NCBI RefSeq assembly: GCF_000015945.1
Contig: NC_009033.1
Span: 1,260,001 to 1,292,000 of the forward strand
DNA from: Staphylothermus marinus F1
Lineage (GTDB): Archaea > Thermoproteota > Thermoprotei_A > Sulfolobales > Desulfurococcaceae
Reading direction: 5' to 3'
Length of the DNA: 32,000 bases
Shown here piece after piece: positions 3,781 to 25,768 of the stretch (position 1 is the stretch's first letter; every line of letters starts with the position of its first letter). The position numbers were made by a program, and so were the translations under genes. The notes beneath the pieces were generated by a model. It was not told the DNA's origin. It saw only the letters and a program-made list of their open reading frames with translations, and did no database searches.

Positions 3781-4068
3781 GTGGGAATAACCATGTCAGT
3801 GCCGAAACCCAAAACAGCTACCCCGCTCAAATACTTAAAGAGTGCTGTAAACCAAATAGTTCTAGTTAAGATCAAGGATGGACATGAGTATATAGGAACA
3901 CTAAATATGGTTGATCATACGATGAACGTTGTACTTAGCAATTGTCAAGAATACGGAGACGATGGAAAACCTATTGCTAGATATGGAAAAGTGCTTATTC
4001 GAGGAAGCCACATAGTATTTATAAGCATAAACTATGGACAAGTAGCTCCAGAAATAGCTGTTGGATAG
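3781..4068 (+). CDS. Sm-like (LSm / SmAP) RNA-binding protein
   Basis: Sm1 motif (KDGHEYIGTLNMVDHTMNVVL) and Sm2 motif (VLIRGSHIVFI). The start may be GTG 3781 or ATG 3793. A TATA-like CTTTATATTA lies upstream. Confidence 0.85.
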   Translation: MGITMSVPKPKTATPLKYLKSAVNQIVLVKIKDGHEYIGTLNMVDHTMNVVLSNCQEYGDDGKPIARYGKVLIRGSHIVFISINYGQVAPEIAVG

Positions 4069-4504
4069 GTGTAGTGTTTTGTCAGAGGAATACCTGCTTA
4101 AAGCATACGATATAATGACTCCTGAAATAAGATTCATAGATAAAAATTCTCCTATCAAAGAAGCTGCACTAAGAATGATAAATGAGGGTATTGGGGCATT
4201 AATAGTAGTTGATCAAGAAGGACCCATAGGAATCGTAACTAAGAGAGACATTATATGGGGAGTATTATTTGAGAAAAGAGATCCTGAAAAAGAACCTGTC
4301 GAGAAAATAATGAGCACTCCATTGATAATGATTGATTCTAGTAGTGACATAGTTCAAATACTAGATTTAATGATTAGAAACAATATATCGCATCTGCCTG
4401 TTAGAGAAGGTGATAAAGTAATCGGTATGATAAGTGATATGGATCTATTAGAGGTTTTCAGAGACGTCATAGAGATCGTAAATGCTAGAAGGATCAAAAA
4501 ATAA
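4061..4504 (+). CDS. CBS-domain pair protein
   Basis: Two CBS repeats (DIMTPE...GALIVVD..GPIGIVTKRDI; IMSTP...HLPVREGDKVIGMISDMDLL). The real start is possibly TTG 4079, after AGGTG at 4066..4070. Confidence 0.8.
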   Translation: MDRCSVLSEEYLLKAYDIMTPEIRFIDKNSPIKEAALRMINEGIGALIVVDQEGPIGIVTKRDIIWGVLFEKRDPEKEPVEKIMSTPLIMIDSSSDIVQILDLMIRNNISHLPVREGDKVIGMISDMDLLEVFRDVIEIVNARRIKK

Positions 4505-4731
4505 TGTTATCATCTATTATTGCCCATAATATTCATGAATCAAATTTATATATAGTTTACTTATTCAAGCACACCATTAATCAATAGATATGGAATAGTA
4601 TAAGCTATTATTATCATTCATAAGTATTAACACATACTTATATTATAAGTTAATCGAGTTATTGTTGAATCAATATGTATTTTAAACAGAACAGGCGAAT
4701 TTTTTAGTAGTTGAGATACAAGGTGAACTAT

Positions 4732-5682
4732 ATGCCTGGGAAAAGTCCTGTAAGACGCTCTATTGGTGCACCTAGAAGAGTGGAAAAACATCGTTGGCTT
4801 AGAAGCGATGGTACGCCGAATTTTGAGGATAGAATCTATAAGAGTACCGAAGAATTGGAGATAATAGCTAAAAAACCAGTTAAACAAGCAAGTCCATCGA
4901 CGCCGTTGCTTGAAGCAGTTGAAGAAATGGCTAAAGGATATAGAAGCTTAGTCATTACTGTTTCCAATAAGATTGCGGGGCTATTATTGTCGACTCATGT
5001 CATAAATTATTTGGGCGGGGGAGAATACTTTAAAATAGTTGAGGAAAGACACGGCTACAATATATATTCTGCTCTTCAAGAACCAGTTCAGTCAATTATG
5101 GAAAAGAACCCTATTGTAGCATATATTGATGAAAAACTATCAAATATACTTGAAAAAATGGTTATGAATGAGATAGGTATTGTACCAATAGTTCTACGTG
5201 ATGGAAGAGTTTATGGGATCATAACAGAGCATGATCTAATAAAGTATTTATCGTACAGTATATCTATAGGTGTTAAAGTAGCAGATGTTATGAGCAGCCC
5301 CGTAGTAACAATAGAGTCTGGAAGACCTATTAAGGAAGCAATGGAAAAAATAATCAAGTATGGATTCAGAAGAATCCCAGTTGTCGGTGAAAATGTTGTT
5401 CTAGGGATAATAACCGCAATGGATATTATAAAATACTTCGGCACACATGAAGCATTCAAAAACACGGTCAGCGGAGATATAAGGGAAGCATTAAAGATCC
5501 CGGTAGACGATATCATGGTTAGAGAGCTTGTTATTATAAAACCTGATGACGATCTAGGGTTAGCAGCTCATAAGATGGCTGAGAAAAACGTTGGTTCAGC
5601 TCTTGTAGTTAATGATAAAATGGAGCTTTTAGGTATAGTAACAGAACGTGACATACTCTATGCATTATCAATAAAGAAGTAA
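4732..5682 (+). CDS. CBS-domain protein (four CBS repeats)
   Basis: Repeated CBS signatures (IGIVPIVLRDGRVYGIITEHDL, RRIPVVGENVVLGIITAMDI, GSALVVNDKMELLGIVTERDI). The ATG at 4732 is preceded by GGTG. The track's ORF begins at 4711. Confidence 0.8.
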   Translation: MPGKSPVRRSIGAPRRVEKHRWLRSDGTPNFEDRIYKSTEELEIIAKKPVKQASPSTPLLEAVEEMAKGYRSLVITVSNKIAGLLLSTHVINYLGGGEYFKIVEERHGYNIYSALQEPVQSIMEKNPIVAYIDEKLSNILEKMVMNEIGIVPIVLRDGRVYGIITEHDLIKYLSYSISIGVKVADVMSSPVVTIESGRPIKEAMEKIIKYGFRRIPVVGENVVLGIITAMDIIKYFGTHEAFKNTVSGDIREALKIPVDDIMVRELVIIKPDDDLGLAAHKMAEKNVGSALVVNDKMELLGIVTERDILYALSIKK

Positions 5683-5704
5683 ATATTTATAGGTGATATA
5701 AGCA

Positions 5705-6553
5705 TTGAGGCTTGAATCTCTAATAAGAGAAGATATACCCATTGTCGATAAAAATGATTCATTATATCACGCATTTAAACTAATAGAGAAGACCGGCATA
5801 GATAAGGTAATAGTGACTGAGAACAGAGTATTGAAGCCGGGAAAAGAAGTAAAAGAACTAGCAGGAATACTAACTAGCAGAGATATAGTTCAAAAAATTG
5901 CTACACAAAGAATGAGGCAAACAACTCCTGGCAAACTACACGTTTCAAGCTTTATAAGTATAAATCCAGCATTCATAACCATCGACTCAAGTCTTCTCGA
6001 TGTTTTCAAGCTAATGGTTGACAAAGGCTATGGTATACTTCCCGTACTAGATAAGGAAGGAAATATTATGGGGGGAATTCTCAGAGATACACTTCTTAGA
6101 GTAGCTGAAAAAGATGATACCGAGATTAGACATATAATGGATACAAACCCACTTATCGCTAGAACTACTGATAGAATTCTGAAAATAAGACAAGATATGC
6201 TTAGTAATGATATAAGCTTTATGCCAGTAGTTGATGAAAACGATGAATTAGTAGGATATATAACAATATATGAAGTGGCATATTCACTAATGAGATTCCA
6301 AGATATTGTACCTGCTAAATACAGGAAGGAGAGGATATCACATTTAATAGTAGAAGATGTAATGAGGTTTAGGCCACCAAAACTGAGAATTATAAATACT
6401 GTTTCAGAAGCTGTTATAAGTATTATGAAAAAGAATAGTAGGGGAGCTGTTGTAGTAGATGAGATAGGTAGAATAGCAGGTGTTGTAACTCCTCACATTA
6501 TATTGAAACATATATATACTAATAAAAAGGAATTAATAGAGGAGCTAAGTTAA
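5705..6553 (+). CDS. CBS-domain protein (four CBS repeats)
   Basis: CBS signatures (GILPVLDKEGNIMGGILRDTL, SFMPVVDENDELVGYITIYEV, RGAVVVDEIGRIAGVVTPHII). TTG start follows GGTG. Confidence 0.75.
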   Translation: MRLESLIREDIPIVDKNDSLYHAFKLIEKTGIDKVIVTENRVLKPGKEVKELAGILTSRDIVQKIATQRMRQTTPGKLHVSSFISINPAFITIDSSLLDVFKLMVDKGYGILPVLDKEGNIMGGILRDTLLRVAEKDDTEIRHIMDTNPLIARTTDRILKIRQDMLSNDISFMPVVDENDELVGYITIYEVAYSLMRFQDIVPAKYRKERISHLIVEDVMRFRPPKLRIINTVSEAVISIMKKNSRGAVVVDEIGRIAGVVTPHIILKHIYTNKKELIEELS

Positions 6554-12205: not shown

Positions 12206-12844
12206 ATGGCTTCTAATGACTGCGCCGAACTAACCAAGCTTGCCGAAGAAATAAAAAAGTGTCAAAAATGCCCACTACATCTAAGCAGGAAAAACGCTGT
12301 TCCAGGCGAGGGTCCCTGCAATGCCGAGATAATGTTTGTTGGCGAAGCTCCCGGTAGTAAAGAAGATGAAATAGGTAGGCCTTTTGTTGGTGCCGCTGGC
12401 AAGCTCCTAACCCAGTTACTAGAACTTATTGGGTTGAAGAGGCCAGATGTTTACATCACCAATGTTGTAAAGTGTAGACCGCCAAATAACCGTGATCCAA
12501 CCCCTGAGGAAATAGAAGCGTGTTCACCGTATTTAATAAGGCAAATAAAAATTATAAAACCAAAAATAATTGTTGCCTTAGGAAGACATTCAGCTAGATT
12601 CTTGTTTTCTAGAGCTGGTTTAAAATGGTCAAATATGAAGGCAATGCATGGAAAGGTATTTTCTGCGAGAATAGATGGTGTCGAAGTAAAAATTATGGCT
12701 ACTTATCACCCAGCGGCAGCCCTATACTCACCGAAGCTTCGTCCCGAACTGGAAAATGATTTCCATGTTCTTGAGCGTCTTATACAGGATATTCATGGAA
12801 AATCTGTAACTAAGTATAGAACCATACTTGATTTTCTAAAGTAG
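12206..12844 (+). CDS. udg: uracil-DNA glycosylase, family 4 (Fe-S containing, thermophile type)
   Basis: C..C..L cysteines near the N-terminus, GEGP....IMFVGEAPG..ED..G.PFVG.AG, CRPP.NR.P, and HPAA. Confidence 0.85.
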   Translation: MASNDCAELTKLAEEIKKCQKCPLHLSRKNAVPGEGPCNAEIMFVGEAPGSKEDEIGRPFVGAAGKLLTQLLELIGLKRPDVYITNVVKCRPPNNRDPTPEEIEACSPYLIRQIKIIKPKIIVALGRHSARFLFSRAGLKWSNMKAMHGKVFSARIDGVEVKIMATYHPAAALYSPKLRPELENDFHVLERLIQDIHGKSVTKYRTILDFLK

Positions 12845-14600
12845 GAGGTTTATTTCTTATTTTTCCAATAAGATATCCTATGAGAAACGATCCTATTACT
12901 AACGTAATAATAGCTGGTAAAATATCATATCTTAATTCATGCGAAGATACGATCTGAGTATGAATTGTTTTCTCAGATGATAATCTCATATATTGTCTTG
13001 TAATCATTAGCTCAAATACTAAGATTGCTAGGTTCATAGACATGAGTACTCCTAGATCATATGTTTTTTCTCCTTCTATAAGATAATCCTTTACAAGCTC
13101 GATTGTTGTTAGCATAGTTGGTGCTAAATAGCCTGTTTCCGAAGCTATTAGGTATCCTAATCCATTTATTGTTTTATTAAGATCAATTATCGTTTTAGGA
13201 GAAATAAATAGATCAAATAACCCTCTTATTGCTGATAAGTTTTGGTTTAATGTATAGAAATAATATCCTAGATATAGTATTTTCCTAGTATTACTCTGAT
13301 TACTATTAACTATGGATTTAAAATGTTTGATCGTTAAGTTTCCAATATAATTCATTGATTTTAAGTATGTAAGAGAGATATTGATGTAATCGATTATCCT
13401 ATCATAATTATCATTAATATTTGCTAAAAAATCTGGATCCGATTTATTTATGAATAGTTTTAACCAATGATTAACTGTTTGCATCCTAGCTAGACTGAGG
13501 ACATAGTATTCTGTTTTTTGAATTGGATTTGTAACATTATTACCAGCGTAATAATAGAGTTTTGACTGGCTATATCTTATGTATGCGTTGAGGAATACGT
13601 CGAAGTTCCATATATTATAGTATTTGTTGAGAAGTAAAGTTTCATAATTCTCGATTATGTCTTTTGTTTTTGTTAAGTTATGCTGAATCCATTCCTTTAA
13701 CAATGTTGGAATTTTGGGATCGCTTATGGCTTTTCTCGCTAAAATACTTGTATAAATATTTATGTATGCTCTAAACATATATGATGCCGCAGTATAGAAG
13801 TCTCCTATTGAGTAGTACTTGTTAGCTAAAAAGTAATATGTTGAACCATTAATGCTATATATGTTTATATTATGTCTTTGCAAGTATTGATCTATGCTTT
13901 TCTTTAGATTAATATATGAATAGTTGAAAGCATTTATTAAGTGTTTTATGCAGAGCTTTCCCATAACTTGTATACTAGGTAGAATCTTATCACCACTATA
14001 ATAATTATATGCATTAAACACATCAATAGCATAGATATATTTTCTCAAACTAAACCTGAAAAACTGGGGAGGACCTATAACATAGTCTAGGCCGTATCTA
14101 AGTGCAGCATAATATTTAGCATCAATGCCTGATACATTTCCAACGATAAGATTAGGTGCTACAACACCTGTTGCTCCAATCTTTGGAGAATATTTTATGT
14201 TTTTAAATAACCCGATGAATCCTAGTGTGAAAGCTAGTGTGGCACTTGTTCCCTTTAAATCAATTTCTTCTGGAAAAATTATTTTATAATTATATGACTT
14301 ATAATCTATGCCTGTTACTAATGAGGCTAGTCGGAGAGAATAATATATAGAATACAGAGTATCTTCTCCAATAACACCATTCTTTTCTACAATATCTACT
14401 TCTCCGTCTCCTGGAAAATAAGCTTGCAATGTCACATTTACTACAACGCCTACATTACTATCAGTAACAGCTAATAAGTAGGTATTAACTGAGGAAACGA
14501 GATACTCACTAGTTGTTTCAGCTATTATGGATGTTTGAGACAAGACAAGTAGTAATAAAAACATAAAAGCAACTATCTTTATTGTTTTATCAATTTTCAT
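12810..14600 (-). CDS. secreted, C-terminally membrane-anchored protein with an N-terminal Lon-protease-like (S16, Ser-Lys dyad) domain and a large Tyr/Asn-rich domain
   Basis: N-terminal signal/anchor (KIVAFMFLLLLVLS). DLKGTSATLAFTLGFIGLF...IGATGVVAPNLIVGNVSGIDAKYYAALRYGLDYVIGP parallels the Lon proteolytic-domain consensus DGPSAG...MTGEI...G.V.PIGG..EK..AA.R.G....IP. A C-terminal TM helix (ILPAIITLVIGSFLIGYLIG) is followed by KIRNK. The 3' end overlaps udg convergently by 35 nt. Confidence 0.6.
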   Translation of the reverse strand: MKIDKTIKIVAFMFLLLLVLSQTSIIAETTSEYLVSSVNTYLLAVTDSNVGVVVNVTLQAYFPGDGEVDIVEKNGVIGEDTLYSIYYSLRLASLVTGIDYKSYNYKIIFPEEIDLKGTSATLAFTLGFIGLFKNIKYSPKIGATGVVAPNLIVGNVSGIDAKYYAALRYGLDYVIGPPQFFRFSLRKYIYAIDVFNAYNYYSGDKILPSIQVMGKLCIKHLINAFNYSYINLKKSIDQYLQRHNINIYSINGSTYYFLANKYYSIGDFYTAASYMFRAYINIYTSILARKAISDPKIPTLLKEWIQHNLTKTKDIIENYETLLLNKYYNIWNFDVFLNAYIRYSQSKLYYYAGNNVTNPIQKTEYYVLSLARMQTVNHWLKLFINKSDPDFLANINDNYDRIIDYINISLTYLKSMNYIGNLTIKHFKSIVNSNQSNTRKILYLGYYFYTLNQNLSAIRGLFDLFISPKTIIDLNKTINGLGYLIASETGYLAPTMLTTIELVKDYLIEGEKTYDLGVLMSMNLAILVFELMITRQYMRLSSEKTIHTQIVSSHELRYDILPAIITLVIGSFLIGYLIGKIRNKPPTLENQVWFYT

Positions 14601-20004: not shown

Positions 20005-20604
20005 GTGATAAATTTGGTTACTGATATAAAGAGAGAAATAGATTTAAGACCTACGACAAAGATCGAAAACATAGTTGCCACAGTCATTCTTGATCAATCC
20101 CTAGACCTCAACCTTATTGAGAGCCGTGTCCCCAATGTTAGTTATCAACCTGATCAATTTCCAGGTTTAATATTAAGATTAGAAAAACCAAAAACAACCG
20201 CACTAATATTTAAATCTGGCAAAATGGTTGTAACAGGTGCCAAAAGCACTCAACAACTAATAGATGCTGTTAAGAAAATAATTAAGTTGCTGAGAAAATA
20301 TGGTATTAAAATAGTTTCAAAGCCTCGTATACAAATCCAAAACATTGTAGCGTCCGGAGATATTAATGCATACATTAATTTAGAGAGAGCAGCTTATCTA
20401 TTAGAAGACAGCATGTATGAGCCGGAACAATTTCCAGGCCTTATTCATCGTATGAGAGAGCCGCGTGTTGTCCTATTAATTTTCAGTAGCGGAAAAATGG
20501 TTATTACTGGTGCAAAGGAGGAAAGTGAAGTAGAAACAGCAGTTAGAAATATTGCTAAGAAACTATTAGATCTAGACTGTTTATTACCGAAGAAAAGCGA
20601 ATAA
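20005..20604 (+). CDS. tbp: TATA-box binding protein
   Basis: Two direct repeats, each with IENIVA/IQNIVAS...EQFPGL/DQFPGL...F.SGKMV.TGAK. The start is GTG 20005 or TTG 20014, after GCGGGTG. Confidence 0.95.
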
Positions 20605-20653
20605 TAGGGTAGAGTTAAAAATATTACATAATTAAAACATTATACAGCTCTGA

Positions 20654-20714
20654 ATGATGACGTGGGCAGCCTAGGACCAACATCGTAGGGATGAAGACCC
20701 TAGTCTCACACTGA
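20654..20714 (+). ncRNA. candidate C/D-box sRNA
   Basis: ATGATGA (C, 20654..20660) ... GGGATGAAGA (C'-like, 20691..20697) - 13 nt - CTGA (D, 20711..20714). GC-rich island in an AT-rich intergenic region downstream of tbp. The D' box is not convincing (AGGA 12 nt after C). Confidence 0.45.
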
Positions 20715-20817
20715 ATTACCTTTCCTAATAATGTTCCACTACATTATTTCTTTTTTAGGAGAAAAAACAATACAATTTTAATGAATAATTTTCAAATAGA
20801 TCTATTACCATCATGAT

Positions 20818-21264
20818 CTATAAAAGCAGTACTAATTTATTACCACCAGCTCTTTTAGCTTTTCTTAACACGCGAATAGCTCTTCTTCTACCTGGTGTTC
20901 CATGATATGCTTCTCTCCTGTTTTTAGCTTTTCTTCCTAAAACATAGTCTCTAATAACTACAATAGTGATAGATGCACCAACTCTATTAACTTCGTCTTT
21001 TATAACTTTCAGATCCTTAACGATCTCATTTATTTGTTCATATCCATACGGGATCTCGAGTATTGTTTCTTCTGTGCCTCTTTCATAGTCTAATCCATAT
21101 ACCACAACTGCTCTCCATTTTCTCACAAAATTTTCAACAAGACTCGTTAACATACCTGTTACAGTATTAGGTCTATATTGGTCGAGACCATGCTTAACAG
21201 TATATTCTTCGAAACGATCTAGATCTAGAACTATGATTATGCCTTCAACAAGCAAAGCTTTCAT
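20818..21264 (-). CDS. minimal stand-alone GGDEF-like / palm-domain nucleotidyl-cyclase-fold protein (GGDEF replaced by GTEET)
   Basis: 148 aa. VLDLDRFEEY (cf. DxDxFKxxND), ERGTEETILEIP (cf. RxGGEEFvvixP), ASITIVVI (cf. TvSiG), AIRVLRKAKRAGGNKLV (cf. ADxALYxAKxxGRNxV). Same order and spacing as the GGDEF consensus as I remember it. The ATG overlaps the upstream gene's stop (ATGA, 21261..21264). Confidence 0.5.
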   Translation of the reverse strand: MKALLVEGIIIVLDLDRFEEYTVKHGLDQYRPNTVTGMLTSLVENFVRKWRAVVVYGLDYERGTEETILEIPYGYEQINEIVKDLKVIKDEVNRVGASITIVVIRDYVLGRKAKNRREAYHGTPGRRRAIRVLRKAKRAGGNKLVLLL

Positions 21265-22370
21265 CTTATTCTTTCATTTTTTAAAAATATGTTATCGAGA
21301 AACCTCAACCTTTTCGGTATAGGCGGATGGCTACTGAGAACTTCTTTTGCTGGATCAACTGGTGAGTTCTTTATCTTCTCTATTACTTCATCAATATCTC
21401 TATAACTTATGTTCTTTCTATAACTATATGGGTAGAAGGGGTTCGCGATCGCGTCTGTTAATGCGTAAATGAAGAGTGTCCTTAGCTTACTGGAGTCTAT
21501 GTGTTCCCGCATTTCTTTGTTATATGAATAATACATGTGTAGCTTAGCTAGTGCTCGTTGCATCTCCTTATTTCCAGCAACATATGCTCCATGAGCATCT
21601 GCATAGTATTCTCTTAACCTACTAAAAGCTAGAATGAATACTTGTATTATTAAGCTCAATAAAATAGCTCCAACACCGAGAAGCAGTAACAATAATGGAT
21701 TTCCTCCTCTTTCTTGCCTACCATATCCTCCTGTAAGACCCGCTCTCATAAAGACAAGGCCTAGATAATATATTATACTCGGTATAATCCCCATAAACAA
21801 CATTATGAAGTTATCTCTGTGCTTATGATGACCAAGCTCATGCCCTATTACTCCTAATAACTCGTTTCTATCAACAATACCCAACATACCCGTGGTTACA
21901 GCTACATATTTGCCGGTCAAGAAGTTACCGTATGCAAAAGCATTAGGGGGACCATTAACAATCATAGCTTTGGGAGGTTTCATACCTGCTCTTCTAGCAG
22001 CTTCATCAACTAGCCTCTGTAGCTCGGGATCATGCTGTGCTCCATAAGATACATTGATGATTACTGGAGAAATAATATACATTATTACATTCATTATTAT
22101 AACGAAAATAATCAAGTCTGTAAATAATATGCTGTATCCCAAGTTCTCAATAATTAGCCATAGAATATATATCGCTGAAAATCCTCCTACGAAAACTATT
22201 GCACCTGCAATATACATTGATGTATAAAATGAAAACTTATTCGATAATTTTCTAGCAACTCTCGGAGCAATTAAGGAAGCAATAATGTTGAGTGTTATAA
22301 ATCCTATTATGTATGCCAGAAACATTGCAACAACTACTAGAGGATCATAAAACCACCATATCATGATCAC
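21261..22370 (-). CDS. htpX: M48-family zinc metalloprotease, HtpX-like, integral membrane
   Basis: HELGHH (HExxH), downstream REYYADAHG (third ligand Glu), C-terminal SSHPPIPKRLRFL, and multiple TM helices on either side of the catalytic region. Confidence 0.8.
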   Translation of the reverse strand: MIMIWWFYDPLVVVAMFLAYIIGFITLNIIASLIAPRVARKLSNKFSFYTSMYIAGAIVFVGGFSAIYILWLIIENLGYSILFTDLIIFVIIMNVIMYIISPVIINVSYGAQHDPELQRLVDEAARRAGMKPPKAMIVNGPPNAFAYGNFLTGKYVAVTTGMLGIVDRNELLGVIGHELGHHKHRDNFIMLFMGIIPSIIYYLGLVFMRAGLTGGYGRQERGGNPLLLLLLGVGAILLSLIIQVFILAFSRLREYYADAHGAYVAGNKEMQRALAKLHMYYSYNKEMREHIDSSKLRTLFIYALTDAIANPFYPYSYRKNISYRDIDEVIEKIKNSPVDPAKEVLSSHPPIPKRLRFLDNIFLKNERIR

Positions 22371-22512
22371 ATACCTCCCGCTCCTATTCTACTATCCCAT
22401 AATAATGTATAGGCCCATATAAAATCTCACATTAACATCCCCATTATTTATAAGAATTCATATATGAGCCTATACAAGAATATTAAGGTACTACTGAAAT
22501 TATATATAGTAG

Positions 22513-22574
22513 ATGTTGAGGCCGACATAGTCCAACCCCTTATGTAGGGGGATGAAGAAGGGTCGATTATCTGA
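22513..22574 (+). ncRNA. candidate C/D-box sRNA
   Basis: ATGTTGA (C variant, 22513..22519) - 12 nt - CCAA - internal hairpin CCCCT/tatgt/AGGGG - ATGAAGA (C'-like, 22552..22558) - 12 nt - CTGA (D, 22571..22574). GC-rich island in the divergent intergenic region. Shares CCAAC...GTAGGG..ATGAAGA with the 20654..20714 element. Confidence 0.45.
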
Positions 22575-22620
22575 AGAGCAATATGGGCGTGAATATGATG
22601 CATTATAGGGTGCAAACATA

Positions 22621-23637
22621 TTGGCTAAGGAGCTTAAAAAAATTGAGCTCGAATTATATGAGGGAATAGATGATATTAGCGAAAAGATAAGAAGCAGTGC
22701 TTTCGAAGCATATATAACTTTGGAGGGAATGTTTCAAGGAATTATAAGGGTAATAGGAGAAGATATAGCAAGTGTTTTTAAAGAATTAATTAGTAAGAGT
22801 AGCAGAAAATGCATATACAGCAGGATCAGTTTACGAAAAGAAACTGGGACATGGGATGAGCTTGGCATACTTGTATGTAATGGTATAGCAATAGCTGCCT
22901 CAGGGGAAATAGATAATGAGAAATTGTCGGGTATAAAATTATTAGAAAAAATAGCTAGTAGAATAAACAAGAATATTTATTCAGCCGGGGTAATTGAGAT
23001 AACAGAGATATCATTAGACTTTATTAAGAAAAGACTAGGTATCAATATTGATAATTTTGTCTCCACAGAGTCATTAGAAAAATCAGCATCCGAGAAAAAA
23101 CCTTTAAAAACTCAAAAATTCAAAGAAGTCGGTAAAATAATTGAGCCAAAAGAAATAGCTCCAGCCGCCACTATACCAGTCGAAACTTCAACATCGAAAA
23201 CAGCTCCCTTACCTGTTGAATTAGCGAGACAAGTTCTACCGCCGCAAGTCCTCGCATCTCTTGGTTTAACAAGGGAAAATAAACAAGTATTAATTGAGGA
23301 TAAAAATTTTCAACCTATTAAGGTAAAAGAGGCAATATCTATTGATCAATCAATACTTGAATTCAGTGATAAAATGATTAAATATGCATTCGAAAACCAA
23401 GTAAATATATCGCAAGCAATAATTAGAGGAGATAATGAAAAACTTGTTGTAGAAGTCATAGTGGCTCGATTAGGCTTTGCACGTAAAAGACAAAAAATGA
23501 TAAGCCTAGCTAATAACGTAGCAGAACTAATTAGAGATGTATTAGTAAAAAGTAATGTTAATGTTAAAAAAATATCTGTGATAGTCCGCCACGGATTCGA
23601 TGCTGTAAAAGTATCGAGGGATCTATCAGCGAAATAA
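22621..23637 (+). CDS. hypothetical two-domain protein with a Pro/Ala/Thr/Glu-rich central linker
   Basis: 338-aa ORF. TTG start follows GGTG. N-terminal domain ~150 aa, linker (EPKEIAPAATIPVETSTSKTAPLPVELARQVLPPQ), C-terminal domain ~110 aa. I recognise no motif. Confidence 0.5.
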   Translation: MAKELKKIELELYEGIDDISEKIRSSAFEAYITLEGMFQGIIRVIGEDIASVFKELISKSSRKCIYSRISLRKETGTWDELGILVCNGIAIAASGEIDNEKLSGIKLLEKIASRINKNIYSAGVIEITEISLDFIKKRLGINIDNFVSTESLEKSASEKKPLKTQKFKEVGKIIEPKEIAPAATIPVETSTSKTAPLPVELARQVLPPQVLASLGLTRENKQVLIEDKNFQPIKVKEAISIDQSILEFSDKMIKYAFENQVNISQAIIRGDNEKLVVEVIVARLGFARKRQKMISLANNVAELIRDVLVKSNVNVKKISVIVRHGFDAVKVSRDLSAK

Positions 23638-23644
23638 ACTACTA

Positions 23645-24544
23645 TTATAATCCACACATTAAAAAAGCAGTTTCTATATCTTTAAATTCAATAACCGATA
23701 TTCCTTTATTATCTAATTGATAATTATCGATGATGACTAGATCATCTGAAACAATATTCTCAATACCAAACTCAACATCTTCAACTTTTTCATATTCTAT
23801 AGAAACAATAACTCTCGCCTTATTTAGGATGCCATACTTCTTAATTAGAGGCGATAAGTAATTATTATGATCGAGAGAAATAGATGTTCCCGGATGATAC
23901 GCGCTCATTGCCGGCAACACGATTATCTTGTTTCCAACAGTAGTCGGCACTATTAAGAAAGCCGGGAATTTATATGCATTAAAACATCTTAGACTAGGAT
24001 GTTCATGTCCAATCACTACTAAATCATATTTAGATATATCTTTTTCTAAATGTCCATGAATAAAGAGTGTTTTGTAGTTATTAAAATATAATTCATATTC
24101 TCTCATTAATTCTATACCATAATCTTTCAGAATTATTGGTAAGAAATTATCATGATTTCCTCTCACAACTATTATTTCCTCGATACCATTAGACAATAAA
24201 TAATTAAATAGTTCTCTAATTTCTTCTCTTTCCTGCCGGAGAAGCCTATCAAATGCATGTTTGAGATCTCCGTTTATCAGTACACGTTTAGGCTTCAAAT
24301 ATTTAAATACAAAACTTAATGTCTTCAATGTATTTCTTAGCTGGATTTTCGGAATAAACATTCCAGTATAGCTTGTCGAAGCTCTACGACTACTATAATC
24401 TAAACCCCTAGCTACTGATTCCTCAAAACCTAAATGTACATCTGAGAAAATAATCATGTTATGGCTTCTAGAATAAAGAATAGGAGTTCCTAAAACTATA
24501 TGGAGATCAATATCTTTTTCTCTAAACAACGGTCTCAATATCAT
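23645..24544 (-). CDS. metallophosphoesterase (SbcD/Mre11-related archaeal family)
   Basis: Motifs FSDVHLG, NGDLKH, VRGNHD, IHGH, GHEHP. 299 aa. Confidence 0.7.
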   Translation of the reverse strand: MILRPLFREKDIDLHIVLGTPILYSRSHNMIIFSDVHLGFEESVARGLDYSSRRASTSYTGMFIPKIQLRNTLKTLSFVFKYLKPKRVLINGDLKHAFDRLLRQEREEIRELFNYLLSNGIEEIIVVRGNHDNFLPIILKDYGIELMREYELYFNNYKTLFIHGHLEKDISKYDLVVIGHEHPSLRCFNAYKFPAFLIVPTTVGNKIIVLPAMSAYHPGTSISLDHNNYLSPLIKKYGILNKARVIVSIEYEKVEDVEFGIENIVSDDLVIIDNYQLDNKGISVIEFKDIETAFLMCGL

Positions 24545-24611
24545 TTATAGAGACACCATCGAATAAAGTTGTATTCAAAAATGTTTAGAAGGTTATAGAA
24601 AATTATAGAAG

Positions 24612-24676
24612 CGGGCCCGCCGGGATTTGAACCCGGGACCTACGGGTTAAGAGCCTCGGCTATCGGCTGGCCCCCC
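24612..24676 (-). tRNA. tRNA-Lys(CUU) 3' half-gene: 22-nt leader (24676..24655) plus exon covering positions 31-73 (24654..24612)
   Basis: Minus-strand read: GGGGGGCCAGCCGATAGCCGAG | G CTCTTAA CCCGT AGGTC CCGGG TTCAAAT CCCGG CGGGCCC G. This gives an anticodon loop with CTT, the 3' anticodon stem, a variable loop, a full T-arm (TTCAAAT), an acceptor 3' strand fully complementary to GGGCCCG of the 5' half, and discriminator G. No encoded CCA. Confidence 0.9.
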
Positions 24677-24702
24677 TATTTTGAGGAATTATTATTATTG
24701 GA

Positions 24703-24710
24703 TTATTAAA
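24703..24710 (-). promoter_or_regulatory. TATA-like box (TTTAATAA on minus strand) for the tRNA 3' half
   Basis: 26 nt separate it from the first G of the leader (24676). It lies just downstream of the radical-SAM gene stop. AT-rich context lowers specificity. Confidence 0.45.
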
Positions 24711-24724
24711 TCTTATTGTTTTAA

Positions 24725-25768
24725 TCAAGTTTCTCCTACAATTCTGCCTATTAATAAACAATCTTTATCGTTTATTATCCTAACATAATATGTATGATCG
24801 ATCTTTTTTCCTCCACCATAGATCGTTATGAGCCATTCTTTTTTAACTGCTACACCTATATATTCTCCTCGGAAAAGACCTGGAGATACCGTCTTTACAG
24901 CAGTAACATCGTTCTTCCTATAAGGACATGGGTAACGTTTCCTTTTCTCCATACCCCATTCACTCATTTCCCAAGATACTTTGAGTCCAGTGGCTTTCTC
25001 TATTTCTCTAATTTTCCTCCAGAACATTCTCCATTTTAGAGGTTTTACTCCTGGAACCTTTCTTCCATACTTATGTATATTATATTTCTGAATAGTTGCT
25101 GGCGGCCATTTTTTGCCGGCGCCAATTCTATATGCCCACTTAATAACTTCTATAATGTCATCATCGTTAATACCTGGTATCCACACAGGTGTAATATGTA
25201 GATCTATGTTTGTTTCCTGAACAATATATTCAGCAAGCTTTTTAACTTTATCAATATTAAACCATTCTACTCCCTGCAACAATTTTGCTTTCTCATTATT
25301 TAGGGTATCTATACTTAGATTTATACGGTCTAGGCCGGCTTCATTTAACTCATCTATGAGTCTATGAGATAAAAGGGCTCCATGTGTTTCTAAAGCTATG
25401 CTTGAAATATAGGGACTTCTTTTCAGCTTCTTAACTAGATAGGTTAGATAAGGATATGTTAAAGGGTCTCCTACAGTATCAATTAATGCCTCCACACCAC
25501 CTCCTTTAAATCTAGCAATTTCAATAGTTGCTTCATATATAGAATCAGGATCAACTATGAATTCTGCTCGTCTATTCCTACTATGTGGACCAGCATCTAC
25601 ACTACAGAAGATACAGTTTAATGGACAAAGAGTTGTTGGACGAACTTGTAAAACATTCGTTCCTCTATCGATCACTCCAAAACCAATGTATCCATATAGA
25701 GGTGTTCCTTTAACAAAGTATAATGGCCTATTTCTCCAAACTACTCCGATAATCTTAGTCTCTAGCAA
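24725..25768 (-). CDS. radical SAM enzyme (uncharacterised archaeal family)
   Basis: CPLNCIFCS (CxxxCxxC) near the N-terminus, a TIM-barrel-like region with GDPL, and a C-terminal beta-rich extension. 347 aa. Confidence 0.75.
   Translation of the reverse strand: MLETKIIGVVWRNRPLYFVKGTPLYGYIGFGVIDRGTNVLQVRPTTLCPLNCIFCSVDAGPHSRNRRAEFIVDPDSIYEATIEIARFKGGGVEALIDTVGDPLTYPYLTYLVKKLKRSPYISSIALETHGALLSHRLIDELNEAGLDRINLSIDTLNNEKAKLLQGVEWFNIDKVKKLAEYIVQETNIDLHITPVWIPGINDDDIIEVIKWAYRIGAGKKWPPATIQKYNIHKYGRKVPGVKPLKWRMFWRKIREIEKATGLKVSWEMSEWGMEKRKRYPCPYRKNDVTAVKTVSPGLFRGEYIGVAVKKEWLITIYGGGKKIDHTYYVRIINDKDCLLIGRIVGET

Follow-up and report, generated by a model that had tools for sequence, protein, structure and literature searches.

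The locus described here raises the question of what is encoded by a small archaeal gene whose product resembles a GGDEF domain, and whether this product works together with the membrane protease whose gene it overlaps. The gene lies in a 32,000-nucleotide stretch of the Staphylothermus marinus F1 chromosome (NC_009033.1, positions 1,260,001 to 1,292,000 of the forward strand), called the window below; all coordinates refer to it. In a sequence-only reading of the window, the product had been described as a minimal palm-fold protein and had been proposed to form a functional module with the protease. The two open reading frames (ORFs) and their four-base junction were found where that reading had placed them:

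20818..21264, minus strand, including the stop codon: palm gene, encoding a 148-aa stand-alone GGDEF-like palm-domain protein (ORF list, homologues, AlphaFold2 model, Foldseek)
21261..22370, minus strand: gene of a 369-aa M48/HtpX-like membrane zinc protease (Pfam PF01435, E 1e-38)
21261..21264, minus strand: ATGA overlap of the palm ATG and the M48 TGA (from the sequence; identical junction in S. hellenicus)

The palm protein probably belongs, as the Staphylothermus orthologue, to a small family of archaeal GGDEF-related palm proteins that is inherited vertically and for which sequence conservation and a structural model predict nucleotidyltransferase activity. It would most likely be an active enzyme of this kind, free of regulation and with a base specificity other than the canonical one.

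The 148-aa ORF was accepted as a real gene because comparison with the S. hellenicus orthologue (86% identity; dN 0.067, dS 0.598) gave a dN/dS of 0.11 and because 129 homologues were retrieved at E<=1e-3. By the substitution ratio, the gene is under strong purifying selection. The calculated isoelectric point (pI) of the protein is 9.8, with values of 4.9 for residues 1-108 and 12 for the last 40 residues. Neither a transmembrane segment nor an extra domain was found in the palm protein, and the claim that sensor and I-site are missing was confirmed: no sensor or receiver (REC) domain and no RxxD I-site was present. Family members are 140-180 aa long, have no extra domains and share invariant catalytic acids. 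Several have been automatically named 'GGDEF domain-containing protein' in UniRef, JGI and NCBI.

Used alone, the palm protein matched no Pfam model even at E<=10 and no NCBIfam model, and as a single query against PDB sequences it gave nothing useful. Two family alignments were used for profile comparison and modelling: A1, with 54 sequences from Thermoproteota, and A2, a wider alignment that includes Thermoproteota, Asgard and Methanopyri members. An AlphaFold2 model of the palm protein was built on A1 and reached a predicted local distance difference test score of 95.1 and a predicted template-modelling (TM) score of 0.89. Its elements are beta1 (residues 6-15), two helices (18-25 and 34-50), beta2 (53-56), beta3 (66-72), a helix (75-94), beta4 (99-108), two helices (116-121 and 124-138) and beta5 (144-147), in the order beta1-alpha1-alpha2-beta2-beta3-alpha3-beta4-alpha4-beta5 of the GGDEF/cyclase palm topology.

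The model was compared to the PDB with Foldseek; the fold matches named here all had a probability of about 1.0 at 11-19% identity. The top match was the class III adenylyl cyclase Rv1900c (E 4.5e-5, TM score 0.61-0.67). The GGDEF domains of PA0575, DgcR, DgcB and DgcZ were also matched, as were Cas10/Csm1, Cmr2, GTP cyclohydrolase III and the minimal CRISPR polymerase (mCpol) OptS (TM score 0.51-0.55). Among the viral models of BFVD, phage GGDEF proteins were the best matches.

At the sequence level, alignment of A1 with a canonical GGDEF protein by hhalign gave a probability of 92.7% and an E-value of 4e-7 over 124 columns, pairing DLDRF with DIDEF, TEE with GEE and AKRxGGN with AKQQGRN. When A2 served as the profile, GGDEF domains or diguanylate cyclases made up nine of the ten top PDB matches (3ign, 2.1e-5; DosC, 3.7e-5). 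The A1 profile had placed spurious Arg/Lys-rich de novo TIM barrels on top, which was cured by the broader A2. Single family members also matched PF00990, namely 9 of the 54 Thermoproteota and 9 of the 18 Asgard and Methanopyri sequences (best E 3.4e-6). By the structural model, the palm protein has the minimal GGDEF/cyclase/Cas10-type palm fold, as had been read from its motifs, and the likeness exceeds what chance would give. By profile comparison it is closer in sequence to GGDEF than to mCpol or Cas10.

The likeness to the class III cyclases, of which M. tuberculosis Rv1900c and M. avium Ma1120 were top Foldseek matches, consists in a common beta-alpha-alpha-beta-beta-alpha-beta core. It remains at the fold level, whereas the motif register fits GGDEF and not the cyclase homology domain (CHD); no CHD match was obtained with Pfam in the palm protein or among the top family-wide matches.

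Size and architecture also recall mCpol (PF18182), in which a palm of about 120-150 aa without the full GGDEF motif stands alone. OptS of the Panoptes system, whose single palm domain of about 120 aa retains little of the GGDEF motif, is a constitutively active cyclic-dinucleotide synthase (PMC12657218). This precedent of 2025, that stand-alone palms lacking GGDEF can be active as cyclases, makes the enzymatic question on the present family timely. That the palm protein is itself an antiviral guard of the Panoptes type, constitutively making a decoy cyclic nucleotide, is nevertheless very unlikely. Besides size, architecture and the OptS fold match, only marginal PF18182 matches point that way (3 of the 54 A1 members, E >= 0.035, and none for the palm protein), and sequence profiles favour GGDEF over mCpol. 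No match was obtained with PADLOC in the window, and no CARF, SAVED or transmembrane effector gene was found beside the palm gene in about 90 loci. The gene lies not in a defence island but in a housekeeping block with genes for DNA ligase, GPN GTPase and TATA-binding protein (TBP), and its inheritance looks vertical.

All four motif placements of the sequence-only reading agree with the hhalign register and with the secondary structure of the model; a further motif was added at the start of helix 2:

21211..21225, minus strand: DLDRF, residues 14-18, end of beta1; D14 and D16 invariant in A1 and A2, predicted metal-binding site, aligned to DIDEF
21154..21168, minus strand: NTVTG, residues 33-37, N-terminus of helix 2; N33 and T36 invariant, N33 aligned with the guanine-contacting Asp of GHxxGD
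21067..21081, minus strand: RGTEE, residues 62-66, beta2-beta3 hairpin at the GGDEF position; G63, T64 and E65 invariant, E66 conserved in at least 90%
20953..20976, minus strand: ASITIVVI, residues 97-104, beta4, equivalent of the TxSxG strand (model and alignment)
20839..20856, minus strand: KRAGGN, residues 137-142, end of the last helix, equivalent of AKxxGRN; K137 invariant, Gly for the Arg of GRN

Within A1, invariant residues are D14, G26, P32, N33, G57, R62, G63, T64, E65, E66, K137, G140 and G141. Over the Thermoproteota, Asgard and Methanopyri members together, D14, D16, N33, T36, G57, G63, T64, E65 and K137 are invariant, and L15, F18, G26, Y30, P32 and E66 reach a conservation of at least 90%. 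All divergent Asgard and Methanopyri members keep [R/E]GTEE. The beta1 Asp and both hairpin acids, which had been described as retained, are thus conserved in the family alignment, and the phosphate-binding Lys is as well. By this alignment, the family has kept what GGDEF enzymes use to bind two metals and phosphate, namely the acidic set and the Lys.

The palm topology, the DxD-F of beta1, the acidic pair of the hairpin and the AKxxG-x-N helix end are shared with the bacterial GGDEF diguanylate cyclases (PF00990; PleD, WspR, DgcZ, DosC). The TxSxG strand of the latter is common to the Asgard palm members, which read T/S-x-S-I-G at beta4. The family differs from the bacterial enzymes in having GTEE(A/T) in place of GG[DE]EF: the second Gly is an invariant Thr and the Phe is lost, whereas both acids are kept. 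According to hhalign, six residues (LDxxRG) are inserted ahead of TEE relative to the canonical hairpin, and the Arg of GRN is a Gly. The residues that read guanine are also missing. In the hhalign register, the position of the guanine-specifying Asn (KxxND) is taken by T22, which is variable in the family, and that of the Asp (GHxxGD) by the invariant N33. Finally, the RxxD I-site and an N-terminal sensor or REC domain are absent from the palm family.

The replacements at GG and GRN and the hairpin insertion could also be read as signs that the palm protein is non-catalytic or merely hydrolytic, that is, a nucleotide-binding regulator, a GdpP-like NTPase or an enzyme like GTP cyclohydrolase III. 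The degenerate GGDEF domain of GdpP/YybT (PF24898) is a divergent GGDEF-like palm as well and was matched weakly by 9 of the 54 Thermoproteota and half of the Asgard members, numbers similar to those for PF00990, and GTP cyclohydrolase III is among the fold matches. All PF24898 matches stayed below the 30-bit Pfam cut-off, however, and in GdpP the GGDEF domain is part of a multidomain membrane phosphodiesterase, whereas the palm protein stands alone. GTP cyclohydrolase III has 250 aa and gave no sequence-level match. The strict invariance of the metal-binding acids and of the Lys across phyla is typical of catalysis, and a non-synthetic function was considered quite unlikely.

The family was delimited by a hidden Markov model search of 1.84 billion representative proteins, in which only 44 clusters were retrieved at E<=1e-3. 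As far as sequence similarity can tell, its membership is narrow, with a sharp boundary towards the millions of bacterial GGDEF domains. It ranges over Desulfurococcales and relatives, Methanopyri and Asgard archaea; the Asgard members come from Loki-, Odin-, Hel- and Hodarchaeales and from 'Asgardarchaeum'. Identity declines by lineage in an orderly fashion, and on this pattern the family looks vertically inherited.

Such a distribution has to be set against the literature on archaeal GGDEF proteins. The view of the sequence-only reading that GGDEF signalling is rare or absent in Crenarchaeota agrees with published surveys, which regard conventional GGDEF signalling as absent there (PMC5847659, PMC10249747). 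Diguanylate cyclases are almost exclusively bacterial (PMC10249747, PMC8646023), and no cyclic di-GMP (c-di-GMP) has turned up in any archaeon examined to date (PMC10249747). In the survey of Galperin et al. (2018), the sole archaeal GGDEF domain detected was from Methanocella arvoryzae (PMC5847659). Two other archaeal sequences, M. kandleri MK0296 and A. pernix APE1864, had been listed by Galperin (2005) as 'truncated sequences' and were not counted as diguanylate cyclases (PMC1183210). Archaeal GGDEF relatives were predicted by Anantharaman, Iyer and Aravind (2010) to be active because the three acidic residues are kept, and were regarded as unlikely signalling proteins (PMC2904730).

The palm family appears to be the one to which MK0296 and APE1864 belong, since it includes an Aeropyrum sp. 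member (locus L087) and members from metagenome-assembled genomes (MAGs) of Methanopyri (P0146, P0188). Like the present proteins, the two relatives are, by their published description, small, stand-alone, archaeal and GGDEF-related, with the acids kept and no signalling domains, and they occur in Aeropyrum (Desulfurococcales) and Methanopyrus (Methanopyri); on this description, nothing sets them apart from the palm family. The novelty implied by the sequence-only reading did not hold, as the family was noted in 2005 and 2010 (PMC1183210, PMC2904730) and automatically named GGDEF members exist. New are the invariant GTEE signature and the hairpin insertion, a confident structural model, the extension to Asgard archaea, the survey of neighbourhoods and the inversion next to the M48 gene. 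Although conventional GGDEF signalling is considered absent in archaea, strong purifying selection has kept a GGDEF-related palm, its catalytic core intact, in three archaeal lineages, one of them Asgard.

If the palm protein is active as predicted, it would bind a nucleoside triphosphate with Mg2+ or Mn2+ and catalyse nucleotidyl transfer, probably as a homo-oligomer by analogy with GGDEF proteins, class III cyclases and mCpol. Its activity would be constitutive or limited by substrate rather than gated by a sensor. The base specificity would differ from that of the GTP-specific diguanylate cyclases, and the product might be a cyclic or linear di- or oligonucleotide other than c-di-GMP, or a nucleotide added to another acceptor. 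The basic C-terminal 40 residues may contribute to the binding of the triphosphate or of a nucleic-acid partner. It may further be suggested, tentatively, that the GTEE-palm family is a constitutive minimal synthase of an undescribed archaeal signal or metabolite, not c-di-GMP, common to Desulfurococcales, Methanopyri and Asgard archaea, with the receptor encoded elsewhere in the genome. Should the palm protein prove active, archaeal biology would gain either a nucleotide product or an RNA-directed activity that is new to it.

Several points weigh against the reading as an active enzyme of the MK0296/APE1864 family. Neither Pfam nor NCBIfam has a model that matches the palm protein itself. Two residues important in diguanylate cyclases, the second Gly of GGDEF and the Arg of GRN, are replaced, and the six inserted residues lengthen the catalytic hairpin; activity could therefore be lost or changed. 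The identity with MK0296 and APE1864 was derived from taxonomy and description, not from direct sequence comparison, and the literature on family members yielded no biochemical or experimental work. The neighbourhoods examined revealed no partner, receptor or degrading enzyme that is conserved across lineages.

The proposed module with the protease was evaluated by comparison of gene neighbourhoods. In addition to the window, 80 further loci were taken from species-representative genomes, and neighbours were identified by tblastn and by unbiased ORF clustering. Adjacency was defined as a distance of <=450 bp and was counted over the 61 loci with >=2.5 kb of flanking sequence on both sides. The upstream gene product had been correctly recognized as a multi-transmembrane HExxH protease of the M48 family: in addition to the PF01435 match it has HELGH at residues 177-181 (21828..21842, minus strand) and about five hydrophobic segments, and hence both the HExxH zinc motif and multiple transmembrane segments. 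Its score with the NCBIfam HtpX equivalog model was 201.7 bits, below the cut-off of 275. Counts for the two neighbours of the palm gene were as follows:

M48 gene beside the palm gene: 10 of 61 loci, same strand in 3
TBP gene beside the palm gene: 34 of 61 loci, same strand in 21

A co-expressed second-messenger or regulatory module, in which the cyclase product controls the protease or the reverse, would be in line with the ATGA overlap kept in S. marinus and S. hellenicus and with the M48 gene being the immediate neighbour in ten fully flanked loci. In seven of these ten, however, the M48 and palm genes are convergent and hence not co-transcribable. The same-strand loci comprise the S. marinus window, S. 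hellenicus and one MAG with a gap of 275 nt, and the genes overlap in the former two. The M48 gene was not at this position in the MAG labelled Staphylothermus sp. (L008, L009), and no adjacent M48 gene was found in the Pyrodictiaceae, Acidilobaceae, Asgard and Methanopyri loci. A conserved pairing, which the sequence-only reading had suggested looking for, was not borne out, as the other adjacent loci in Desulfurococcaceae are mostly convergent. On these counts the module was rejected and is regarded as very improbable.

The arrangement in related genomes points to the origin of the overlap. Thermosphaera and a second Desulfurococcaceae genome show the arrangement DUF2070 (+), TBP (+), palm (+) and M48 (-), with the palm gene behind TBP and convergent to M48. 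S. marinus and S. hellenicus carry the palm gene at the same place but inverted, so that it overlaps the M48 gene head-to-tail at ATGA. The overlap, which would have arisen by this in-place inversion between TBP and M48, is by gene order a local quirk specific to Staphylothermus and not the mark of a conserved two-gene module. It may give local co-translation of the M48 and palm genes in these two species without defining a functional module. Greater novelty would have attached to a cyclase-protease module, for which the comparative data give no support.

Two observations were made close to the overlap. The A/T-rich sequence ATATTTTTAAAAAA (21277..21290, minus strand), which has a TATA-like look, sits about 13-26 nt upstream of the palm ATG, still within M48 coding sequence near its 3' end. 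An internal TATA box serving a leaderless palm transcript was envisaged there but not adopted, since the stretch lacks conservation in S. hellenicus. A gene at 22621..23637 (plus strand), divergent from that of the M48 protease, encodes a 338-aa protein without Pfam or NCBIfam match, which is conserved close to the palm and M48 genes in 11 related loci.

In Desulfurococcales, the gene found most often beside the palm gene is that of TBP, which belongs to a syntenic block with the following members in the window:

20005..20604, plus strand: TBP gene (PF00352 in related loci), here convergent with the palm gene
23645..24544, minus strand: Metallophos phosphoesterase, TIGR00024-like; part of the syntenic block around the palm gene in Desulfurococcales
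24725..25768, minus strand: radical SAM protein, distantly MoaA-like; same syntenic block

The radical SAM protein scored 70 bits against the MoaA model (cut-off 284). The Metallophos and radical SAM genes travel with the palm gene in many loci of Desulfurococcales, Pyrodictiaceae and Acidilobaceae. Across Desulfurococcaceae, Pyrodictiaceae and Acidilobaceae, the Metallophos, TBP, palm and radical SAM genes lie within about 3.5 kb despite repeated changes of order and strand (window 20005..25768; L001, L027, L033-L039, L043, L047, L050-L057, L071-L087). The block is not present in the Asgard and Methanopyri loci. A functional link of the palm gene to these three neighbours was rejected; the adjacency is confined to one order and was therefore treated as inherited synteny.

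Neighbourhoods in Asgard archaea and Methanopyri differ from the Desulfurococcales pattern and among themselves. At one divergent locus the palm gene lies beside genes for a PHP_C protein and ribosomal protein L35Ae, and at another beside ESCRT-II. In a Hel- and a Lokiarchaeota locus (L089, L094) it is directly upstream of RadA and Orc1/Cdc6, on the same strand in both. In 'Asgardarchaeum' (L090, 5001-5474), the palm gene overlaps the 3' end of a gene for a 528-aa tRNA-guanine transglycosylase (TGT) and is followed by PNP. In Methanopyri (L092, 5001-5435; L093, 5001-5432), it overlaps the 3' end of a gene for a 522-aa SerA-like phosphoglycerate dehydrogenase. An overlapping upstream gene is thus seen in other lineages, too, but it is a different one each time. 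A fusion was found in P0157 (292 aa, on a 6450-bp NCBI contig), in which an N-terminal Toprim domain (PF01751, E 6e-7) precedes the palm and the hairpin reads GTEQ.

Information-processing genes are frequent among these neighbours (TBP, RadA with Cdc6, TGT, an RsmB-like gene). Together with the Toprim-palm fusion and the basic character of the protein, above all of its last 40 residues, this would suit a nucleotidyltransferase directed at nucleic acids, which would extend RNA or DNA ends or prime synthesis, much like Thg1 or the ancestral palm proposed by Anantharaman et al., a possibility raised there for GGDEF relatives (PMC2904730). The neighbours vary by lineage, however, and may reflect inherited synteny only; the fusion is a single case with an altered hairpin, and the basic tail could equally bind triphosphates. 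Thg1 was not within the top 50 PDB fold matches and was weak in the viral library. A function of this kind is rather unlikely. The narrower idea that the palm protein replaces Thg1 was dropped, as Thg1 was not a top fold match; in addition, M. kandleri presumably has Thg1 too.

The remainder of the window holds housekeeping genes, including those for NucS, CBS proteins, a Mut7-C RNase, AMMECR1, NAD synthase, UDG, DNA ligase, a GPN GTPase and ABC ATPases. No Rfam or tRNA match was obtained in the window. A 596-aa ORF without Pfam match (12810..14600, minus strand) lies between the genes for the UDG-family glycosylase and the DNA ligase. At 4061..6553 (plus strand), three successive CBS-domain proteins of 147, 323 and 282 aa are encoded, followed by the Mut7-C RNase, AMMECR1 and NAD synthase.

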